From Chloroflexota bacterium (GTDB lineage Bacteria > Chloroflexota > Chloroflexia > Chloroflexales > Herpetosiphonaceae), in contig JAIUOC010000003.1 of NCBI GenBank assembly GCA_020161265.1, positions 107,024 to 171,023 on the forward strand: 64,000 bases of DNA. Direction: 5' to 3'. The position numbers and the translations under genes are program-made. The notes below the pieces were generated by a model, which worked only from the letters and a program-made list of their open reading frames with translations, was not told the origin of the DNA and made no database searches. Positions 16,925 through 63,765 of the stretch are shown one piece after another (within the stretch, counting starts at the first letter, position 1; each line of letters opens with the position of its first letter).

Positions 16925-16967
16925 GAGTACGACCTCCTAGTAATCATGAATTATACCATTTTGATCG

Positions 16968-17192
16968 AGGGGTCAGGGGCTAGGGGTCAGGGGCTAGGGA
17001 TCAGGGGTCAGGTTTTGATCCACGAAGGGCACGAAGAGCACAAAGGGCTGTTTTTAGCCACGGATTAACCCAGATTTTGGATGTTGATTATATTTTGTGT
17101 GCTTTGTTCTTCGATTTCCTTAATTCTTGGCCTCTTCGTGGACTCCTCAGTTTCAAACTGGCCCCTGAATCCTAGCCCCTGACCCCTCTATT
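16968..17192. repeat. Mosaic palindromic intergenic repeat element, copy B
   Basis: Outer arms GGGGTCAGGGGCTAGGGGTCAGGGGCTAGGG ... CCTAGCCCCTGACCCC; inner pair GATCCACGAAGGGCACGAAGAG ... CTCTTCGTGGA; includes TTTTTAGCCACGGATTAACC. Confidence 0.85.
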
Positions 17193-18287
17193 TTAAAAAA
17201 CCATGCCGCTTGGTCGTACTAAGCTGCGATCGATGCTGGCTAGATTGGGGCGGCCACATAGCGCCATCGAGCGTTGTAATTCGCGCTGCATGGTCGTTAG
17301 CACATCGGCAACCCCAGCACTACCCGCCACTGCCAAGCCCCATAAGACTGGTCGCCCAAGCATAATTGCCTGTGCTCCTAAAGCCAAGGCTTTAAGCGCA
17401 TCGCTGCCACGGCGAATCCCGCCATCGATATAAATTTCGCACGGGCTTTGCGCCAATGCCGCGACAACCTCGGGCAAGGCTTCAAGCGTGGTAACCGTAC
17501 CATCAATTTGGCGGCCACCATGATTTGACACCACGATCGCTGCCGCGCCTGCCTCAGCAGCCAACAGCGCATCCTCAGCGGTCAAAATACCCTTGACGAT
17601 GATGGGCAAGCTAGTCACCGAGCGCAACCAAGCGATCGATTCCCAAGTCAAGCCAGCATCAAACATATCGGCTTTGGGGTCGGGCAAGGCATTCGGGCCA
17701 GCACGGCGATAATTTTGGGCGGCAGGCACATCGCGAAAATTGGCCATACTCAGATGGGCGGGTACACCAAAACCACTGCGCAACTCACGTTCACGCCGCC
17801 CAAGCCACGGACGATCAATCGTTAACATCAAGGCTTGATAGCCAGCAACTTCGGCGCGAGCAATCAAACGCTCCGACACACTGCGATCACGATAGACATA
17901 CAATTGAAACCAGAGCGGGCATTCGGCGGCAGCCGCAACTTCTTCCAACGAGCGGGTGGCGAGGGTGCTTACGGTGAAAATTGAGCCAGCTTGAGCCACG
18001 CCTCGCGCAGTTTCACATTCGCCCTCAGCATGGGCCAAGCCATGGTAGGCCGATGGTGCAACCAAAATTGGCGAATTAAGCGGCTTGCCCAGCAAAGTTG
18101 TGGCGGTTGAGACTTCACGCACATCAACCAAAAATCGTGGTCGCAAACGTACCTGCTCAAATGAAAGCAGATTCGCCCGCAAAGTCACTTCATCCTCGCA
18201 GCCACCTGCATAATAATCGCAGGTTGGGCCATCCAACAGCGTCATTGCCTGTTGCTCATACTCGTGGAGATTAATCGGCTTGCTCAT
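17193..18287 (-). CDS. FMN-dependent alpha-hydroxy-acid dehydrogenase/oxidase (L-lactate dehydrogenase / glycolate oxidase family)
   Basis: TIM-barrel FMN motifs incl. SNHGGRQ(I)DG and GGIRRG; 364 aa. Confidence 0.85.
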   Translation of the reverse strand: MSKPINLHEYEQQAMTLLDGPTCDYYAGGCEDEVTLRANLLSFEQVRLRPRFLVDVREVSTATTLLGKPLNSPILVAPSAYHGLAHAEGECETARGVAQAGSIFTVSTLATRSLEEVAAAAECPLWFQLYVYRDRSVSERLIARAEVAGYQALMLTIDRPWLGRRERELRSGFGVPAHLSMANFRDVPAAQNYRRAGPNALPDPKADMFDAGLTWESIAWLRSVTSLPIIVKGILTAEDALLAAEAGAAAIVVSNHGGRQIDGTVTTLEALPEVVAALAQSPCEIYIDGGIRRGSDALKALALGAQAIMLGRPVLWGLAVAGSAGVADVLTTMQRELQRSMALCGRPNLASIDRSLVRPSGMVF

Positions 18288-30235: not shown

Positions 30236-31039
30236 TTATTCGATGATCGTTCCATGGCCCGCAAGGGCATCGCTAATTGGTTGGTCACGGCGGCCATCGC
30301 CAATGATGACGCGGCGCACACCACCTTCGAGCGCAGTTTGCGCCCCTAGCAATTTTTTCTTCATGCGGCCTTGCGCTAGTTTTTCGGTCGCTTGGGCTAA
30401 TTCGGTGCGTGGTAAGCGACCAATCAAACTGCTTTCGTCGGGAAAGTTGCGATACAAGCCGCTGACATTGGTCAATAGCAAGAGTGTTTCGGCTTCTAGA
30501 GCTACAGCTACACTGGCCGCACCGCGATCCCCATCAATATTTAATGGTTCGCCCACGTTGCTTACCGCCAATGGAGCAATGACTGGTAGATAGCCTGCGC
30601 TCAGCAAGGTTTGCAACAAACCCTGATTAACCTGATCGATGCTGCCAGTCCAATCATCGCGAATCACTCGCACCCGACCGTTTTCAACCGCCCGAACATT
30701 GGTTTTGCGCGTACCTTGCAATAAGCCGCCGTCGATGCCCGATAAGCCTAAGGCGTTGACTCCCAAACCGCGCAAACGCTCAACAAATTGGCGATTAAGC
30801 AAGGCTGTCGCCATCATAAAAATTTCGAGCGTGCGCCGATCGGTTTGGCGGCTGGTGTGGCCTGATGGCGAGGTAATGAAGCGCGGCGGATGTCCAAGTT
30901 GCTCGCCAAGCGTGTTCGCTCCATCCGAGCCACCATGAAACAGCACAATTGGTTGGCCTTGGGCGGCAAGTCGGGCAATATCAGCGCAGAGATTGCTATA
31001 ATCAATCCCCGCTGCCCCGCCAATTTTTATTACAAGCAT
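30236..31039 (-). CDS. lysZ: [LysW]-aminoadipate kinase / acetylglutamate kinase family (ORF track extends to 31123 into the repeat)
   Basis: MLVIKIGGAA amino-acid-kinase N-terminus; AAK fold; cluster context. Confidence 0.85.
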   Translation of the reverse strand: MLVIKIGGAAGIDYSNLCADIARLAAQGQPIVLFHGGSDGANTLGEQLGHPPRFITSPSGHTSRQTDRRTLEIFMMATALLNRQFVERLRGLGVNALGLSGIDGGLLQGTRKTNVRAVENGRVRVIRDDWTGSIDQVNQGLLQTLLSAGYLPVIAPLAVSNVGEPLNIDGDRGAASVAVALEAETLLLLTNVSGLYRNFPDESSLIGRLPRTELAQATEKLAQGRMKKKLLGAQTALEGGVRRVIIGDGRRDQPISDALAGHGTIIE

Positions 31040-31043
31040 GTGT

Positions 31044-31315
31044 ATGATCCTTATTTGATCCACGAAGCACACGAAGAATAGGAACCGCGAAGAATATGAA
31101 GAGCGCCAAGGCTGAAACCACAAAGAACGCGAAGGGCGCTAAGAACTTCAAGCTCAATGTGTATAGCATATCCTTTCATCCCTCATCATTCATATTTTTG
31201 AATCTCTGCGCCTCTGCGTTAAACAATTGATCCACAAAAAGCACAAAGGTTGTGTAGTTTGTGGCCTGACCCCCAACCCCTAGCCCCTGACCCCTATGCT
31301 CTATGTTCTATGTTC
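31044..31315. repeat. Mosaic palindromic intergenic repeat element, copy C (between lysZ and lysY)
   Basis: GATCCACGAAGCACACGAAG, CGCGAAG x3, CATCCCTCATCATTCAT, CTCTGCGCCTCTGCGTTAAA, CCTGACCCCCAACCCCTAGCCCCTGACCCC, CTATGCTCTATGTTCTATGTTCT abutting the lysY stop codon. Confidence 0.85.
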
Positions 31316-32350
31316 TTAAACTGGGTGCAAGCCTGTAAACTCCAGCCCCAAGCGTTCATCGAAGCCATACATCAAATTTAAGCATTGGATGGCGGCTCCG
31401 GCTGCGCCCTTCATCAAGTTATCGAGGGCACACAGCGCCACTACGCGGCCAGTCGCTTCATCGAGTGCCCAACCAATATCGGCGTAATTGCTGCCTGCCA
31501 AGATTTTTGGCTCTGGATGGCGGTGCAAGCCACTACGATCATGGACAATGCGCAGAAACGGTTGTTCAGCAGCGGCAGCGCGATAGGCTCGCCACAGATC
31601 ACGTTCGTTGACCGAGCCTTGAGTAAACACATGGCAGGTTGCCAAAGCGCCACGCACCATTTCCACCGATGTGATCGAAATATGCACATTTTCAAGGCCA
31701 TGGGCTTGCATAATTTCGGCGGTGTGGCGATGACCAACTGGGGCAAACGAGCGCACCACGCCTGAGCGTTCGGCATGATGGCTGCCATCGTTGGCAACCG
31801 CGCCCGCCTCAGACGAACCAACCTTGACTTCAGCCACTACCGGCTTGGTTTGATCGATCAAGCCTGCCTTGACCAACGGCAACAAGGCCAAGTTAATCGC
31901 TGTTGCATTGCAGCCTACGCCGCTAACATAGCGAGTTGAACGAATTTGCTCACGATACAATTCAGGTAAACCATAAACAAAACGCTCCAGCCATTGCGGG
32001 GCAGGGTGGGGTTCGCCATACCAACGGCTATAGGCTTCGGGGTCGCGCAAACGAAAATCAGCTGAACAATCGATTAATGCTTGACCAAGGCCAGCGTAAT
32101 GCTCGATCTTTTTGGCGGCTGAGCCATGCGGCAAGGCCAAAATCAACACATCACAAGGCTCCAACGTGCTTTGCGGGCTATACCGCAAATCGGTGCGACC
32201 ACGCAAATTGGGGTGGGTGCTGTAGACATATTGGCCTGCTAAGCGTTCGCTGGTGACCTGACGCACCTCGACGTGGGGATGCCCCAACAATAAACGCAGC
32301 AATTCACCACCGACATAGCCCGAGCCACCAACTATCGAAACTGAAAGCAT
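31316..32350 (-). CDS. lysY: [LysW]-aminoadipyl-phosphate reductase / N-acetyl-gamma-glutamyl-phosphate reductase family
   Basis: N-terminal Rossmann GGSGYVGGELLRLL and catalytic Cys region (SGVGCNATA); 344 aa. Confidence 0.88.
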   Translation of the reverse strand: MLSVSIVGGSGYVGGELLRLLLGHPHVEVRQVTSERLAGQYVYSTHPNLRGRTDLRYSPQSTLEPCDVLILALPHGSAAKKIEHYAGLGQALIDCSADFRLRDPEAYSRWYGEPHPAPQWLERFVYGLPELYREQIRSTRYVSGVGCNATAINLALLPLVKAGLIDQTKPVVAEVKVGSSEAGAVANDGSHHAERSGVVRSFAPVGHRHTAEIMQAHGLENVHISITSVEMVRGALATCHVFTQGSVNERDLWRAYRAAAAEQPFLRIVHDRSGLHRHPEPKILAGSNYADIGWALDEATGRVVALCALDNLMKGAAGAAIQCLNLMYGFDERLGLEFTGLHPV

Positions 32351-33427: not shown

Positions 33428-33759
33428 TTGTAATCCTTTATTAGTTAGGGGTCGGGGGCTAGGGGCTGGGGATCGGTATCCCGTCCTGTGCCAACCACCT
33501 GTTGCCAAACCCACTAATTCTTAACAAACCTTACCTTCGTGATCTTCGCGTCCTTCGCGGTTTCAAGGGTAGGGGTCGGGGGCTAGGGGCTGGGGATCGG
33601 TATCCCGTGCAGTGCCACCTGCCTATGTTCAACCCGTTACATTCCGATAGCCAAAAGCCTTATAGCCTTACTCTCTGCGCCTCTGCGTTAAAACTTCCTG
33701 ACCCCTGATCTCTGACCCCTGAACCCTCGCCCCTTCGTGTCCTTCGTGCTCTTCGTGGA
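33428..33759. repeat. Mosaic palindromic intergenic repeat element, copy D, with internal ~45-bp direct duplication
   Basis: TAGGGGTCGGGGGCTAGGGGCTGGGGATCGGTATCCCGT present twice (about 33437-33485 and 33570-33615); also CTTCGTGATCTTCGCG, CCTTATAGCC, CTCTGCGCCTCTGCGTTAAA, CTGACCCCTGA, CTTCGTGCTCTTCGTGGATC. Confidence 0.85.
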
Positions 33760-34755
33760 TCAAAATTGGTCAATTACTGCTTGCACCACCTCAGCCGTTG
33801 TTGCCGTTCCACCAAGATCGGGCGTGTATGGCCCATTGGCTAATACCGCCTGAATTGCGGTTTGCAAGCGTTCGGCGTAGCTGTTCAAGCCCACAAATTC
33901 GAGCATCAACACGCTAGCGCTCAAGGTTGCCAACGGATTGGCGATGCCTTGGCCAGCAATGTCGGGAGCACTGCCATGCACAGGCTCGAATACCGCCGTG
34001 CGAGTGCCATAGTTGGCCGATGCTGCCAAACCAAGCCCGCCACCCCACACGCTGGCGACATCCGAGAGAATATCGCCAAACAAATTGGTGGTGACTAACA
34101 CTTCAAAACGTTCCGGAGCACGGGCCAATTGATAAGCAGCGTTATCGACCAACATTTCTTCAACCTGCAAATCAGGCGCGTCAGCTAGCACGCGCAGCGC
34201 GGTTTCGCGGAACAAACCACAAGTTTCGCGCAGCACATTGGCTTTGTGTACTACGGTGATTTTGCGGCGGCCAGTGCGTTGGGCATATTGCACCGCCCAT
34301 TGCACAATCCGCTCGCTGGCTTGGCGGGTGATAATTCGTTGCGCCGTGGCGCGTTCATCGCCCTCGCGGGTTTCTTGGCCGCTATACAAACCCTCGGTAT
34401 TTTCGCGCACCACTACCAAATTGACTCCAGCACGGGCATTCGCCAGTGGTGGCGTTTGAACTGGCCGCACACAGGCATACAAATCAAGGGCTTTGCGCAT
34501 GCCAACAATTGGGCTGCGATAGCCAGCGACCCGCTGTGATGGCGAGCTAACTGCACCAAACAAGGTGGCGTTGGCCGCTTGAACCGCTGCTAAAGTTTGT
34601 TCGGGCAAGGCGTTGCCAGTTTGTTGAAAGGTTTCCCAACCAGCTTCGGCTTCGACAAACTCGGCAGGAACCGCCAAGGCTTCGAGCACTTGCCGCGCTG
34701 CTTGCACGACTTCGCGGCCAATCCCATCGCCAGCAATCAAACACAACCTCGTCAT
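33760..34755 (-). CDS. Homoisocitrate / 3-isopropylmalate dehydrogenase family (beta-decarboxylating dehydrogenase)
   Basis: NLFGDILSD and metal/substrate motifs of the IDH/IPMDH family; 331 aa; AAA-cluster context favours homoisocitrate dehydrogenase. Confidence 0.88.
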   Translation of the reverse strand: MTRLCLIAGDGIGREVVQAARQVLEALAVPAEFVEAEAGWETFQQTGNALPEQTLAAVQAANATLFGAVSSPSQRVAGYRSPIVGMRKALDLYACVRPVQTPPLANARAGVNLVVVRENTEGLYSGQETREGDERATAQRIITRQASERIVQWAVQYAQRTGRRKITVVHKANVLRETCGLFRETALRVLADAPDLQVEEMLVDNAAYQLARAPERFEVLVTTNLFGDILSDVASVWGGGLGLAASANYGTRTAVFEPVHGSAPDIAGQGIANPLATLSASVLMLEFVGLNSYAERLQTAIQAVLANGPYTPDLGGTATTAEVVQAVIDQF

Positions 34756-36645: not shown

Positions 36646-37779
36646 TTAGGCTGCTTGGAGGGTGCTTGAGCGCAGGAGCGCATCCACCTCGTCGAGCGTC
36701 AACGGCTGATCATCGGCAGCAGCTTTGAGTTGAGCTGCAATGGCGATAATCGTGGTGTCGCTCAGATCCAAACCTAGGGCGTTGGCGCGGCTTTGCAAGG
36801 CATGGCGACCAGTTAGGCGATGCCCAATCAGCACATTGCGTTCGCGCCCAAAAGCATTGGGATCGATCGCTTCGTAGGTGCTGGGATTGGCCAAAACAGC
36901 CTTGGTATGCAGGCCAGCCTTGTGAGCAAAGGCGGTTTCGCTGGTGATACAGGCATTGAACGGCACTTGAATGCCCAACATTGCCGCAACTGTGTGATCA
37001 AGTTGGGCCAACATTGGCAAGGCATAGCCTGCAACACTTTCAGGTTCGGAGAGGTAGAGGCGAGCAATTAAGCCGCTGAGCGCGGCGATGCCGTTGCGTT
37101 CGCCAATTCCAAGAATGGTTGTATCGATGTGGGTTGCGCCTGCTTCGAGCGCTGCATAGGCATTGGCAATTGCACAGCCGCCATCGTTGTGGCCATGAAA
37201 TTCAATGTCGCAGCGAACTGCATTGCGGACTGCACCAACCACACGTTCAACATCGCGTGGCGTGGCAATGCCCACGGTGTCGGCGATGCCAACCCGCTGC
37301 ACGCCAAGCAAATCGACAGCTTGGTAGACGCGCAACAAATCGGGCAGTGGGGTGCGGAATGAATCTTCGCAGGAGAACCGAACTTCGATCTGACGTTCTT
37401 GGAGGAAACGCACAACTGGGCCAACTTCTGCCAAAATCGCTTCAATTGAGCGACCATGGCTCCATTGGCGCAGATAGGGTGATGTGCCAAAGAGGATATT
37501 TACGCCAGCCACGCCACATTCAGCAGCGAGCCGCACGTCATCAAGGTTACAACGGGTGTGGGTCAGCAGCTTGGTGTTGCCGAGCGGCAAGGCTGCGATG
37601 CTGCGCAAATCTGCCGCACTTTGCGGCGAGGCGCAGGGAGAGGTCATTTCGATGTATTCAACGCCAAATTGAACTAGCAAATTGGCGATGGCGAGGCGAT
37701 CTTCACTGCTGAAATGAGCATTGGCCCATTGTTCGCCTTCGCGTAATGTCGTATCAACAATTGCAAAATGCCGTGTCAT
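36646..37779 (-). CDS. Homocitrate synthase / 2-isopropylmalate synthase family (DRE-TIM metallolyase); cluster context favours homocitrate synthase
   Basis: MTRHFAIVDTTLREGEQ and HxH metal motif (EFHGHND); first gene of the lysine cluster. Confidence 0.88.
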   Translation of the reverse strand: MTRHFAIVDTTLREGEQWANAHFSSEDRLAIANLLVQFGVEYIEMTSPCASPQSAADLRSIAALPLGNTKLLTHTRCNLDDVRLAAECGVAGVNILFGTSPYLRQWSHGRSIEAILAEVGPVVRFLQERQIEVRFSCEDSFRTPLPDLLRVYQAVDLLGVQRVGIADTVGIATPRDVERVVGAVRNAVRCDIEFHGHNDGGCAIANAYAALEAGATHIDTTILGIGERNGIAALSGLIARLYLSEPESVAGYALPMLAQLDHTVAAMLGIQVPFNACITSETAFAHKAGLHTKAVLANPSTYEAIDPNAFGRERNVLIGHRLTGRHALQSRANALGLDLSDTTIIAIAAQLKAAADDQPLTLDEVDALLRSSTLQAA

Positions 37780-37911
37780 GAAAGCACAATCCTTCCGCAA
37801 GAACATCCGGTGAACAATTCAGGGCGAACAGCCGCAGGGCGGTGGATATGGCTGATGCGTTTAAGTTGCTTGAGTATGGCCATGGAAAAATCCTTTCAAA
37901 CCGACGTTGGA

Positions 37912-37942
37912 TACAAAAAAACTCGCCGTTTGGTGCGGCGAG
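37912..37942 (-). terminator. Intrinsic terminator (putative attenuator) in the 5' leader of the homocitrate-synthase gene
   Basis: Minus strand: CTCGCCGCACCAAACGGCGAG followed by TTTTTTT; about 135 nt upstream of the start codon. Confidence 0.6.
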
Positions 37943-37974
37943 CCTTGGTGTTTATTGAGCGCGTGAAGTGTTGT

Positions 37975-38061
37975 TTAGACGCGACGCAATAACCCAGACT
38001 CGCTGCCTGGCTTCTTTGCGCTACGTTTTTTCGAGTTCAGGTACAATTGTTGACTGAACAT
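37975..38061 (-). CDS. Candidate leader peptide (28 aa, MFSQQLYLNSKKRSAKKPGSESGLLRRV) with two Lys-Lys pairs, preceding the attenuator
   Basis: Minus-strand ORF with GGAG about 10 nt upstream; AAA AAA and AAG AAG lysine codon pairs; stop ~33 nt before terminator hairpin. Confidence 0.35.
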   Translation of the reverse strand: MFSQQLYLNSKKRSAKKPGSESGLLRRV

Positions 38062-38100
38062 AGTAACAAACTCCACAAACCATCAAAAGTTCTGTCGCGA

Positions 38101-38129
38101 AGCATAGCAGGCAGGTTTGAGTTTGTCAA
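38101..38129 (-). promoter_or_regulatory. Sigma70-like promoter for the lysine-cluster leader
   Basis: Minus strand TTGACA - 17 nt - TATGCT. Confidence 0.5.
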
Positions 38130-38140
38130 GTGACGATTTT

Positions 38141-38345
38141 TGGGCATCGGGGATCGGTTGTTGGGGGTCGGGGGTCAGGGATTTTTAAACGCCAAGGACA
38201 TGAAGGAGAATAAGGCTATAGGCTTTTGGCTATCGGAAATTGGTTGAAATTATCAAAAGCCTATAGCCTATAGCCAAATCTTCCGATCCCCGCCCCCCAA
38301 CAACCGATCCCTAGCCCCCGACCCCTAGCCCCTTATGTTCTATGC
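38141..38345. repeat. Mosaic palindromic intergenic repeat element, copy E (near-perfect long inverted repeat)
   Basis: CATCGGGGATCGGTTGTTGGGGGTCGGGGGTCAGGG ... CCGATCCCCGCCCCCCAACAACCGATCCCTAGCCCCCGACCCC; inner GGCTATAGGCTTTTGGCTATCGG ... CCTATAGCCTATAGCC; terminal TTATGTTCTATGCTCTATGTTCT encodes the last codons and stop of the downstream GT gene. Confidence 0.9.
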
Positions 38346-39469
38346 TCTATGTTCTGGATAATTGCCTCGCGCATAGCCGAACCAACCGCTTCCCAGCGAT
38401 AACGTGCCGCAATTTCGACACTGCGTGCGCCAAAACGCCGACAGCGCTCAGGATCGCCGACCAATTTGATCAAGACGGTCGCCAGCTGATCAACCGTGCC
38501 TGGCTCAACCAAATAGCCATTGCGATCGTGCTCGATAAAATCGGGCATGGCTCCAAGGTTGGTTGAAACCACAGGCAGCCAATAATTCATGGCCTCAATC
38601 GTGACGATGCCAAATGGCTCAAGTTTGGTGGGCATACAAAAGACTGCGGCGCGTTGATAATACTGCGGCAATTGCTCAACCGGAATCCGCCCGATGACCT
38701 CAACTCCTGGCTGGTTGGTTTGTGGGTTTGCGCCGATGATCGTCAGGGTAGCGTTGGGATAAACCGCCCGTACTTGGGCGAAGGCTTGCAGCAATTCAGG
38801 GCCGCCTTTACGCTCCCAATCTATCCCAACATAGACAATATTTTGGCTGGCATAGCGGGCTGGATCAGGCGTTTCGCTGATGACCGGAGCATTGCTACCA
38901 GCGTAAACACAACGTACTTTGGCTGGGTCACAATGGTAATCTTCGACCAATGAACGTGAAACATGATTGGAACGTGTAAAGACTAAATTGGCATTTTGAT
39001 AAATAGTTGGCTCTAACTTCATCCATTCGGGGTGATAGAGCGAGGCCGGATTAAAGCCTGGATATTGACGATTTGCCAGCAAGGTATGGTCGGTATAGAC
39101 AAAATGGGGGATATTTGGCACGCTAGCATCAAATAATGATTGCATCTGAAAACTGAATAGATAGTCGTCATCGCGCAGTAAATCGGCAACTAAATGCTTG
39201 ACAGCACGAAAAATATAGCTGGTGATCAAAAAGGCATCTTTGGGGCCACGCCGCCGCATCGCCAAATCGCCAGCATATTGGCGTAATGTCCACCAGCCGT
39301 TTAATGCAACCAGTGCAGGCTTGCGCCGAATGATGGGAATTAAATCGATCTCACGGAGTTCATTTTCAGGGAATTGAGCACGCAGCGCTTCGGCGGTTCG
39401 CACATTCGCCAACGGCCAGCGCCCCTTACGAATAAAAGCAATTTTGGGAGCCACACGCACCTCCAGCAC
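38333..39469 (-). CDS. GT4-family glycosyltransferase
   Basis: GT-B C-terminal domain with E-x7-E (EPFGIVTIEAM); 378 aa. Confidence 0.8.
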   Translation of the reverse strand: MLEVRVAPKIAFIRKGRWPLANVRTAEALRAQFPENELREIDLIPIIRRKPALVALNGWWTLRQYAGDLAMRRRGPKDAFLITSYIFRAVKHLVADLLRDDDYLFSFQMQSLFDASVPNIPHFVYTDHTLLANRQYPGFNPASLYHPEWMKLEPTIYQNANLVFTRSNHVSRSLVEDYHCDPAKVRCVYAGSNAPVISETPDPARYASQNIVYVGIDWERKGGPELLQAFAQVRAVYPNATLTIIGANPQTNQPGVEVIGRIPVEQLPQYYQRAAVFCMPTKLEPFGIVTIEAMNYWLPVVSTNLGAMPDFIEHDRNGYLVEPGTVDQLATVLIKLVGDPERCRRFGARSVEIAARYRWEAVGSAMREAIIQNIEHRT

Positions 39470-47120: not shown

Positions 47121-47345
47121 GCTTGAGGATCGGGGATTGGGCAACTGATCCCCTTTTTAATCCACGAAGCGCACGAAGTTAAGTTTTTAGCCACGAATTG
47201 CACGAATTCCACCAATTATCCTCGCCAGACCCATGGCCCAATGCCAACGATTCAGCTCCGATCCCCAACCCCTATGTTCTTTGCTCTATGTTATATGTTC
47301 TCAACTTCATCCCTCATCCTTCATGTTAACCATCTCTTACACAAA
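47120..47345. repeat. Mosaic intergenic repeat element, copy F
   Basis: GATCGGGGATTGGG, CCACGAAGCGCACGAAG, TTTTTAGCCACGAATTGCACGAATTCC, CCGATCCCCAACCCCTATGTTCTTTGCTCTATGTTATATGTTCT, CATCCCTCATCCTTCAT. Confidence 0.85.
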
Positions 47346-47487
47346 ACTAACACTCCATCTATATTGTTCTAGTGGATGATCGGCTATACTCCATACACAG
47401 GTCGGGCAGTAAACGCCGCCTGTTCCAATAGCTCTGTAAACTCATTAGACATATCAATAAACACATTTTTTGGAGGATTAACCGCTA

Positions 47488-54491: not shown

Positions 54492-54977
54492 CTAAAGCAT
54501 CCCTTTGCTTGATTCGATGTTGCCCCATTGCCAAGCGGTGTTGAGTGGCGCGGTTTGCAATTGCTGGGTGACGGTAATACCTTCGATGTCGCCCCATTGC
54601 CAAGCGGTGTTGAGTGGCGCGGTTTGTAGTTGCTGGGTGACGGTAATACCTTCGATGTCGCCCCATTGCCAGGCGGTGTTAAGCGGGGCGGTTTGCAGTT
54701 GCTGGGTGACGGTAATACCTTCGATGTCGCCCCATTGCCAAGCGGTGTTGGCGGCGGCTGGTGTACCAAATTGAGGTGTTTGGCTGCTTGTGAGGGCAGT
54801 GTAAACAAAACTGGCAAAAATCAGGCCGAAGGTGACGAAGGCGAGAGCGATGCGGCGGCTAATCGTTGATGAATTGTACACTGGGAGCCTCCTAAGCTGT
54901 ATCAATTTGGGTCTGGATACAGCTTCGCTTTCGCAGTGCGACAACTCTGTGAATGGCATGCGACAGGCATGCGACAA
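54492..54977 (-). CDS. Small signal-anchored protein with ~3.7 perfect 23-aa tandem repeats (LNTAWQWGDIEGITVTQQLQTAP); start uncertain
   Basis: N-terminal hydrophobic segment IALAFVTFGLIFASFVY; nucleotide-identical 69-bp repeats. Confidence 0.6.
   Translation of the reverse strand: MSHACRMPFTELSHCESEAVSRPKLIQLRRLPVYNSSTISRRIALAFVTFGLIFASFVYTALTSSQTPQFGTPAAANTAWQWGDIEGITVTQQLQTAPLNTAWQWGDIEGITVTQQLQTAPLNTAWQWGDIEGITVTQQLQTAPLNTAWQWGNIESSKGML
54500..54770. repeat. 69-bp tandem repeat, ~3.7 near-identical copies, inside the CDS above
   Basis: Unit CCCATTGCCAAGCGGTGTTGAGTGGCGCGGTTTGCAATTGCTGGGTGACGGTAATACCTTCGATGTCGC repeats with only 1-2 substitutions. Confidence 0.9.
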
Positions 54978-59196: not shown

Positions 59197-59338
59197 AATA
59201 CGCTAGTTTATCAGCTGGGCAAACGTTGCTGATCGAGCACACTAAACCCGTCATTAACCATTCTGGGCTAGGCTTTTGACTAGCGGCTTGAATGGTTGAT
59301 GACGGGTTTGGATGTTTAGTGCTGAATTAACCGTACAA

Positions 59339-63589: not shown

Positions 63590-63765
63590 TGATAATTTAA
63601 ATAGAGGGCTGAAACCGCGAAGAACGCGAAGAGCGCGAAGTTAAGTTTTTAGCCACAGCTTTGCTTGATTATGCTCTTATGCTTATTCCCTGATCCCTAG
63701 CCCCTGACCACTGACCCCTACTTCCTATGCTCTATGTTCTTTGCTCTATGTTCTCAATAACGGTT
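63590..63765. repeat. Mosaic intergenic repeat element, copy H
   Basis: AACCGCGAAGAACGCGAAGAGCGCGAAG, TTTTTAGCCACAGCTTTG, CCTGATCCCTAGCCCCTGACCACTGACCCC, CTATGCTCTATGTTCTTTGCTCTATGTTCT supplying the last codons and TAG stop of the upstream gene. Confidence 0.85.

Follow-up and report, generated by a model that had tools for sequence, protein, structure and literature searches.

TAACTGA repeats, known from Beggiatoaceae, some cyanobacteria and Bacteroidetes, are intergenic tandem 7-mers with 2-6 copies per set (MacGregor 2015, PMC4679880). Stop codons occur in all three frames of the forward strand, 13 upstream genes have their own stop codon overlapped by a repeat set, the reverse strand can be translated, and the hosts include filamentous gliding bacteria; in BOGUAY, most sets are forward-oriented and precede a start codon by a few nt, which suggested a role in translational regulation, and it was argued that insertions survive at protein peripheries only (PMC4679880). 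G-rich heptamers, namely GGGAATC in Xanthomonas and GGGGA(C/T)T in Nostoc PCC 7120, form hundreds of intergenic arrays in which about 4 units are preferred (Rehm et al. 2015, PMC4692102). The G-rich runs are on the sense strand where an array overlaps a stop codon or comes within 50 bp of one, and on the antisense strand where it precedes an ORF; converging arrays often make up inverted repeats, and 83% of the positions are conserved between species, with varying lengths (PMC4692102).

The window analysed here is a stretch of 64,000 nt (G+C 50.9%) from a Chloroflexota bacterium of the Herpetosiphonaceae, in which an initial annotation had noticed one word, TATGTTCTATGCTCTATGTTCT, at or beside the stop codons of three genes. 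The word was real, but it had been placed about 10 nt off, at 38322-38345; its actual site is 38334-38355, where it constitutes a tandem period-7 array, (TATGYTC)n, reading (GARCATA)n on the complementary strand. TRF detected period-7 repeats of 3-4.6 copies at 38334-38355, 31294-31316 and 63725-63754, a further site of the (TATGYTC)n array was located at 47273-47300, and at up to 3 mismatches TATGTTCTATGCTCTATGTTCT had 5 matches in the window against 0 expected from shuffles. The GARCATA strand has stop codons at offsets 6 (frame 0), 13 (frame 1) and 20 (frame 2), and the TATGYTC strand is stop-free with one ATG per unit. Since the unit junction ATA/G creates a TAG and 7 equals 1 modulo 3, all three frames are shut within 21 nt, and therefore an ORF entering a GARCATA array gains no more than 6 residues. 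The tails allowed by frame are ...NIEHRT-stop, ...EHRT-stop and ...RT-stop, and the tails observed in the window and elsewhere match these three. It is because the array shuts every frame within 21 nt that stop codon and array coincide at gene ends.

As had been claimed, the 3′ end of the GT4 glycosyltransferase gene (38333-39469, minus strand; likely start GTG at 39454) is encoded by the (GARCATA)3 array at 38333-38355 (minus strand; sense strand AGAACATAGAGCATAGAACATAA), which codes for N-I-E-H-R-T and contains the TAA (38333-38335), so that the protein ends ...AIIQNIEHRT. In this protein the Glycos_transf_1 domain ends at residue 349 of 378; it is identical to NCBI MCA0351899.1 (a "Chloroflexi bacterium" MAG) and to an IMG protein, and 6 residues differ from the GT4 of H. 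aurantiacus DSM 785, from which the window is taken to belong to a Herpetosiphon genome near H. aurantiacus. The origin of the RT-TAG of the gene ending at 63746 from the same word family was likewise borne out, with the TAG (63746-63748) and the last two codons (R and T) of a protein ending ...QPLLRT lying within the GARCATA array at 63725-63754 (minus strand). This gene is a minus-strand ORF open at the window end, in which 9 residues separate the end of a DUF2520 Pfam domain from the stop; no homologue was retrieved with the 84-aa DUF2520 fragment, and the RT tail was judged only against the Pfam domain end. The abutment on the stop of lysY was also found, the TAA (31316-31318) of this lysY-type semialdehyde dehydrogenase gene, whose product has the C-terminus ...GLHPV, adjoining the (GARCATA)3 array at 31294-31316 (minus strand) with one base in common with the last unit; a GGGGNNN array follows. 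The array at 47273-47300 is in the TATGYTC orientation on the plus strand, is followed by (TTCATCC)n, and lies about 160-190 nt upstream of the start of dnaK, the stop-to-stop ORF of which contains an HSP70 domain from residue 42; this array is conserved in H. sp. NSE202. The neighbouring gene on its upstream side was noticed to differ between the window (47121-47372) and H. sp. NSE202 (locus L002), a synteny breakpoint being located at the array.

Other repeat modules were found at stop codons as well. The sense strand of a G-rich heptamer array (17155-17191, minus strand) begins about 1 nt past the stop (17193-17195) of an FMN-dependent dehydrogenase gene, and has an inverted partner at 16964-17014 in an intergenic region with a folding z of -7.3. 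A nonamer array, (CACGAAGNN)3, with a TGATC leader (33731-33757, minus strand) is located beside the stop of a gene of the isocitrate/isopropylmalate dehydrogenase family (Iso_dh), and the TGA at 33760-33762 is both part of the nonamer leader and the stop codon of this gene.

The comparison of the GT4 tail with orthologues, proposed as a check by the initial annotation, spoke for a repeat-derived end. Outside the genus, homologues were at most 68% identical, none of them carried NIEHRT, and their tails differed, with conservation stopping near ...MRExI and being followed by tails such as RAVLT-stop, EKVLMRAEKQA-stop and LQALDMPQD-stop. Because these orthologues do not share NIEHRT, the tail is attributed to the repeat; what it replaces or extends is only a non-conserved stretch of a few residues. 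Within the genus, the GT4 DNA of ten Herpetosiphon genomes was retrieved via the protein, independently of the array, and in 9 of the 10 the array was present at the end of the gene. GT4 ends in NIEHRT-stop in the window and in H. aurantiacus DSM 785, in NIKHRT-stop in Logan contig ERR3697025, in NIEHRA-stop in H. giganteus and H. sp. NSE202, in SIEQRA-stop in Logan contig ERR14008475 and in NREHRT-stop in H. geysericola; in two H. llansteffanensis strains it ends in NIE-TAA and NI-TAG-TAA, respectively, and then the array follows. Past the GT4 stop, 0, 1 or 2 GARCATA units remain, depending on the species. The exception was H. gulosus, in which GT4 ends in QSCI-stop and the downstream region consists of AT-rich sequence and a different neighbour gene; the breakpoint is inside the former array-coded tail (locus L122, 2300-2350).

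In a neighbour-joining tree of the GT4 protein core, both H. llansteffanensis and H. gulosus fall inside lineages with array-coded tails, which makes an array-coded tail most simply ancestral to the sampled genus. On this single-gene tree, the most simple course would be that the array-coded GT4 tail is ancestral and that the stop later slid among the units. A native tail ending in "QNI" with later read-in is disfavoured, since the early-stopping H. llansteffanensis strains nest within the NIEHRA lineages, although this also rests on the single-gene tree and is not decisive.

A degenerate-word scan with one genome per species yielded at least 120 matches and, among those listed, at least 69 Herpetosiphon/Chloroflexia loci, from H. 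aurantiacus DSM 785, H. sp. NSE202, H. llansteffanensis, H. giganteus, H. geysericola and a Chloroflexia MAG. These Herpetosiphon/Chloroflexia loci and the window amounted to 594 kb with 108 arrays of at least 3 units, nearly all of which are located between long ORFs, genes being taken in this census as long ORFs, not as curated annotation. The stop of an ORF of at least 150 codons was contained in 14 of the 108 arrays, and a further 19 begin 0-10 nt past such a stop, all of them in the GARCATA sense. Thus, arrays overlapping or within 10 nt of a long-ORF stop numbered 33 in the GARCATA sense and 0 in the opposite orientation in five species, the 33 including orthologous loci of five to six related genomes with an effective number nearer 20 gene families; the loci had been chosen because they contain the array, irrespective of its orientation or context. 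Among the 108 arrays in the 594 kb, no long ORF ended within 30 nt in the opposite orientation. Single 8-kb loci hold both orientations, each array against its own gene, and the orientation bias therefore tracks the gene and not the replication strand. The bias extends to other modules: GGATGAA, with one TGA per unit, was found within 10 nt of stops in 9 of 49 arrays in one orientation and 0 of 49 in the other, and the CACGAAGNN module within 50 nt of stops in 35 of 97 against 1 in the other orientation. That a short low-complexity word came to stand beside three stops by chance would agree with the involvement of only three gene ends within the window; it is ruled out by the shuffles (5 matches against 0), the asymmetry of 33 to 0 among the 108 arrays and the genus-wide position, and its probability is practically nil.

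GARCATA or GAGCATA at stops was also observed in unrelated phyla, including Saprospiraceae, Syntrophobacterales, Nitrospirae, alphaproteobacterial MAGs and others (loci L009, L019, L025, L047, L052, L056, L119 and others), where, among the matches listed, about 14 GARCATA arrays abut long-ORF stops in the sense and about 7 in the antisense orientation. Arrays lie at or beside the ends of many draft Herpetosiphon contigs (L017, 8-35; L043, 22-49; L086, 25-52; L011, 85-112; L018, 230-264; the end of L123), and the repeats appear to break short-read assemblies.

GARCATA is one of about six module families, the others being GGATGAA, GGGGNNN and GGCTATA 7-mers, CGCAGAGG 8-mers and CACGAAGNN 9-mers, of which the last carry a TTTTGATC leader. 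Module order varies between the intergenic regions of the window, and the modules fill many Herpetosiphon intergenic regions as a fast-changing mosaic, the outermost GARCATA array usually being flush with the upstream stop codon. At 5′ gene ends it is the pyrimidine strand that faces the start, with GARCATA arrays within 150 nt numbering 42 against 9. The polarity rule is thus that the purine-rich strand runs 5′ to 3′ away from either flanking gene, and since it leads away from both genes, an intergenic region reads purine (R) modules and then pyrimidine (Y) modules on both strands; examples in the window are 31037-31315 (lysY-lysZ), 16964-17191 and 33731-33762. The initial annotation had alternatively suggested that an element targets stop-proximal sequence; this is unsupported, and the same polarity at 5′ ends argues for a property of intergenic edges, not for recognition of stop codons. 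The 279-nt gap between lysY and an amino-acid-kinase (lysZ-like) gene at 31037-31315, presumably within one operon, is filled with modules in the order GARCATA, GGGGNNN, CGCAGAGG, GGATGAA and finally CTTCGYG nonamers, which come as close as about 22 nt to the ATG; no significant folding was found for this gap.

Compared with the TAACTGA repeats, the GARCATA arrays are alike in being intergenic 7-mers with a strong orientation bias, three-frame stops and stop-codon overlap, whereas the unit is another one, the stop-rich strand in Herpetosiphon points away from starts, the main link is with stops, and several families co-occur in mosaics. With the repeats of Xanthomonas and Nostoc the mosaics share the mirrored polarity, and the GGGGNNN modules are directly comparable; however, those repeats are without stop codons and one family is dominant per genome, whereas in Herpetosiphon a stop-rich GARCATA or GGATGAA array usually separates the G-rich module from the stop, with 8- and 9-mers also taking part. 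Mosaics are also formed by the REP units and BIMEs of enterobacteria, which are intergenic, commonly just 3′ of genes, and fold into hairpins affecting mRNA 3′ ends; in contrast to tandem 7-9-mers, REP units are imperfect palindromes of 20-40 nt that RAYT transposases mobilise, and they supply no stops. The Herpetosiphon repeats resemble REP/BIME in combining short motifs variably and in their capacity for hairpins, but unlike REP/REPIN their units are direct tandem repeats, and palindromy arises only from inverted arrays. To our knowledge, no relation to stop codons has been described for the STRR heptamers. These occur in heterocystous cyanobacteria, reportedly with the units CCCCAGT, TTGGTCA and CAACAGT in Calothrix PCC 7601 according to Mazel et al. 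in 1990. The likeness to STRR lies in dispersed tandem non-coding heptanucleotides, a filamentous host and several families per genome; units and phylum differ.

Tandem 7-mers, dispersed non-coding arrays, whole-unit length changes and strand bias, by which the heptamer-repeat class (LSSR/STRR-like) is recognized, were all found in Herpetosiphon, while the units (GARCATA, GGATGAA, GGGGYNN and GGCTATA) differ from those of STRR1-3, TAACTGA and GGGAATC and place the arrays outside these families proper. The GARCATA arrays therefore add a new example to a known class, the heptamer repeats of bacterial intergenic regions, and do not represent a new mobile element. In the literature on Herpetosiphon heptamer, intergenic or repetitive DNA, no description of these repeats was found, and a cyanobacterial termination preprint contained no mention of such repeats.

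Directly downstream of GT4 lies a structure, called Copy E, which had been described as a 200-bp inverted repeat with almost no imperfections. A hairpin is indeed present, but it is imperfect and comprises 176 nt (38142-38318), with arm segments that are 73-100% complementary; it is built of inverted heptamer arrays as a hairpin or cruciform with 62 bp and -93.2 kcal/mol as RNA. That it would fold very stably was upheld by prediction, the minus-strand RNA of 38130-38360 having an MFE of -98.9 kcal/mol (z = -6.6) and the DNA of 38141-38345 a value of -50.1 kcal/mol (z = -7.4), and none of the shuffles folded as well, either as RNA or as DNA. On the minus strand, the 5′ arm begins straight after the GT4 stop with a G-rich heptamer array (GGGGCTA/GGGGTCG/GGGATCG/GTTGTTG..., 38283-38332), and the inner 5′ arm is a (GGCTATA)n array (38254-38275) with 16 nt at 100% complementarity. 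Its inverted partner, ATAGCC..., forms the inner 3′ arm (38214-38235), and a C-rich array (CCCTGAC/CCCCGAC/CCCCAAC/AACCGAT..., 38142-38180; 27 nt, 93%) forms the 3′ arm, stopping shortly before the next promoter and its -35 box. Since the odd unit GGTTGTT is common to both, the arms are copies of each other.

The region past this hairpin has features of its own. Immediately downstream of Copy E there is a near-consensus minus-strand promoter (TTGACA-17-TATGCT, 38129-38101), after which come a 28-codon ORF, MFSQQLYLNSKKRSAKKPGSESGLLRRV (38061-37975, minus strand), with two KK pairs, and an intrinsic terminator at 37944-37915 (minus strand). This terminator, placed at 37946-37918 by the terminator scan, was the only terminator-like site near Copy E and is part of the downstream leader. 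All of these precede the gene for homocitrate synthase (37806-36646), which belongs to an alpha-aminoadipate lysine cluster. The leader (37915-38129) is near-invariant in four Herpetosiphon genomes and has no Rfam match; it looks like a lysine leader-peptide attenuator, of a kind that is present in Thermus thermophilus. No RNA families were found in 37700-38450 at E ≤ 1 besides chance miRNA-like matches, nor across the entire window at gathering thresholds. A separate dispersed palindromic family, CCCTCACCCC..CCCCTCTCCC...GGGAGAGGGG..GGGGTGAGGG, was noticed in H. aurantiacus DSM 785 (L124, about 2440-2560) and also in L127, L125, L045 and L105; it sits in the GT4-hcs intergenic region of DSM 785, NSE202 and H. 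llansteffanensis, not in that of the window. Elsewhere in the window, a 69-nt tandem repeat of 3.4 copies (54513-54750; 94% identical, period divisible by 3) lies in a minus-strand ORF (54492-54977) and presumably encodes a repeated protein segment. A 20-nt inverted repeat with a 26-nt spacer (59244-59309; 95% complementary), which is unrelated to the heptamer modules, is located in an intergenic region (59197-59338) that folds strongly (z about -6).

Comparison between relatives revealed how the mosaic changes. In a 98%-identical relative (locus L121), the Copy E hairpin was kept with one 7-nt GGCTATA unit missing, and several substitutions were found inside the arrays against 2-3 changes in about 330 nt of adjacent non-coding DNA. 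From the GT4 stop to the next promoter, module content and length are wholly different in DSM 785, H. giganteus and H. geysericola, and the Copy E hairpin is absent at the GT4 locus of H. aurantiacus DSM 785. Nevertheless, in the window, DSM 785, ERR14008475 and H. giganteus, that is, in all sequences reaching the promoter, R-modules come first and Y-modules last at the -35 box, and from the promoter onward (promoter, leader and terminator) the genomes are near-invariant. The presence of the mosaic and its polarity persist; its sequence does not.

The initial annotation had proposed that insertion of an element repeatedly replaced the native 3′ ends of genes. One part of this stood, in that the array repeatedly supplies terminal codons and stops, but no discrete inserting element was found. 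BLAST of 38131-38360 against 594 kb of Herpetosiphon DNA returned only 20-35-nt modules, plus one 73-nt match at 84%, and in these 594 kb there were no multiple near-full-length copies with the same termini, as a MITE would have; Copy E occurs once, only its short modules recur, and it was rejected as a MITE or repeated element. At 25 stop/array junctions no shared target-site duplication was observed, a weak test in that mosaic ends are undefinable. Insertion of a discrete element is therefore unsupported, Copy E being unique and the GT4 junction one old event. A small non-autonomous mobile element, MITE- or REP-like, that inserts at stops and truncates or replaces gene 3′ ends would fit the many different genes ending in or against the same word, the genome-wide dispersal of the modules and the synteny breaks at arrays (upstream of dnaK relative to NSE202, and in the GT4 tail of H. 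gulosus). Yet such an element would need a fixed unit, whereas the 20-35-nt modules occur in variable order, no terminal inverted repeats or target duplications were observed at the junctions, and the spacers of 0-7 nt are heterogeneous; the GT4 junction is ancestral and its position conserved across the genus, relatives differ by unit slippage and module replacement and not by clean insertions, and stop targeting leaves the polarity at 5′ ends unexplained. We therefore consider a mobile element unlikely.

The proximate explanation that we prefer for the stop/array overlaps, with a probability of roughly 0.75, is passive erosion or slippage at the edge of the array combined with tolerance. A native stop may be lost through a point mutation, a short deletion, slippage of units or conversion, after which closure by GARCATA would limit the extension to at most 6 codons, and the added codons would be tolerated where the C-terminal tail of the protein is unconstrained. 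Where two inverted halves of a mosaic are copies of each other, a long hairpin may result, as in Copy E. We infer that the overlaps arise passively, without any targeting of insertions; the C-termini encoded by the repeat are by-products that are tolerated. The stop content of the arrays accounts for the tolerance of overlaps in one orientation, but not for the near-exclusive orientation of arrays beside intact stops or their pile-up at 0-10 nt. As the arrays beside intact stops are in the same orientation at this distance, a further cause, functional or mechanistic, is needed.

A functional reading, which as an ultimate explanation would be compatible with edge erosion, is selection of the mosaic as a bidirectional transcription-unit insulator or 3′-UTR cassette. 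Stop-rich purine modules would free translating ribosomes right after the CDS, and C-rich, G-poor pyrimidine modules, a hairpin or a G-quadruplex would then end the transcript, or stabilise it, ahead of the next promoter, possibly through Rho loading on C-rich RNA or through 3′ protection like that by REP/BIME. This would be in line with an R-then-Y polarity that is the same from both flanking genes and preserved despite module turnover, with a mosaic that stops exactly at the -35 box of a highly conserved promoter, and with array positions conserved between species despite the bacterial deletion bias. The sense strand of GGGGNNN could form G-quadruplexes, for which there is biophysical evidence in analogous repeats (PMC4692102). 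Some intergenic regions fold very strongly, that of Copy E having z values of -6.7/-7.7 in a survey of eight array-bearing regions of the window, but only 3 of the 8 were significantly structured (z < -3.5) and the other 5 had z about 0. With 5 of 8 unstructured and DSM 785 lacking the hairpin at the GT4 locus, a hairpin was rejected as a general function of array-bearing regions. A terminator scan found no terminator-like site on the Copy E hairpin and no U-tract after it, and Copy E was accordingly rejected as an intrinsic (Rho-independent) terminator. Against an insulator also count the faster evolution of the mosaic than of the flanking non-coding DNA and the results of RNA-seq in Xanthomonas, which showed no clear termination role (PMC4692102). 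The insulator is thus a possibility that we regard as rather doubtful.

A mechanistic cause is also conceivable, in which the arrays would be written by an end-directed, repeat-adding repair and the mosaics would be scars of that pathway. Intergenic double-strand breaks would be resected to the limit set by selection (a stop codon on one side and a promoter on the other), and each 3′ end would be lengthened in 7-9-nt units, through iterative slippage or telomere-like synthesis, and then rejoined. A mirrored polarity that is independent of gene orientation and survives turnover is as expected of end-directed writing, and such a repair, if true, would account for the pile-up at 0-10 nt, the replaced tails, the hairpins made of inverted duplications and the location of synteny breakpoints at arrays; even so, we hold it to be very unlikely.

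The apparent replacement of gene ends by an element comes down to simple frame arithmetic on a known type of repeat. Repeat-encoded tails such as NIEHRT should not be taken by annotators or builders of protein families as conserved motifs. As for the mosaic itself, we infer that it is kept for a generic property, as a spacer or insulator, and not for its exact sequence. Among long simple repeats, heptamers are the ones most over-represented in bacterial genomes, and in more than 30 years, from STRR to the G-rich heptamers and TAACTGA, neither how they originate nor what they do has been explained. Herpetosiphon provides an unusually clear case of them, with co-occurring families, a near-absolute polarity rule, conserved positions combined with module turnover, and effects on the C-termini of proteins.
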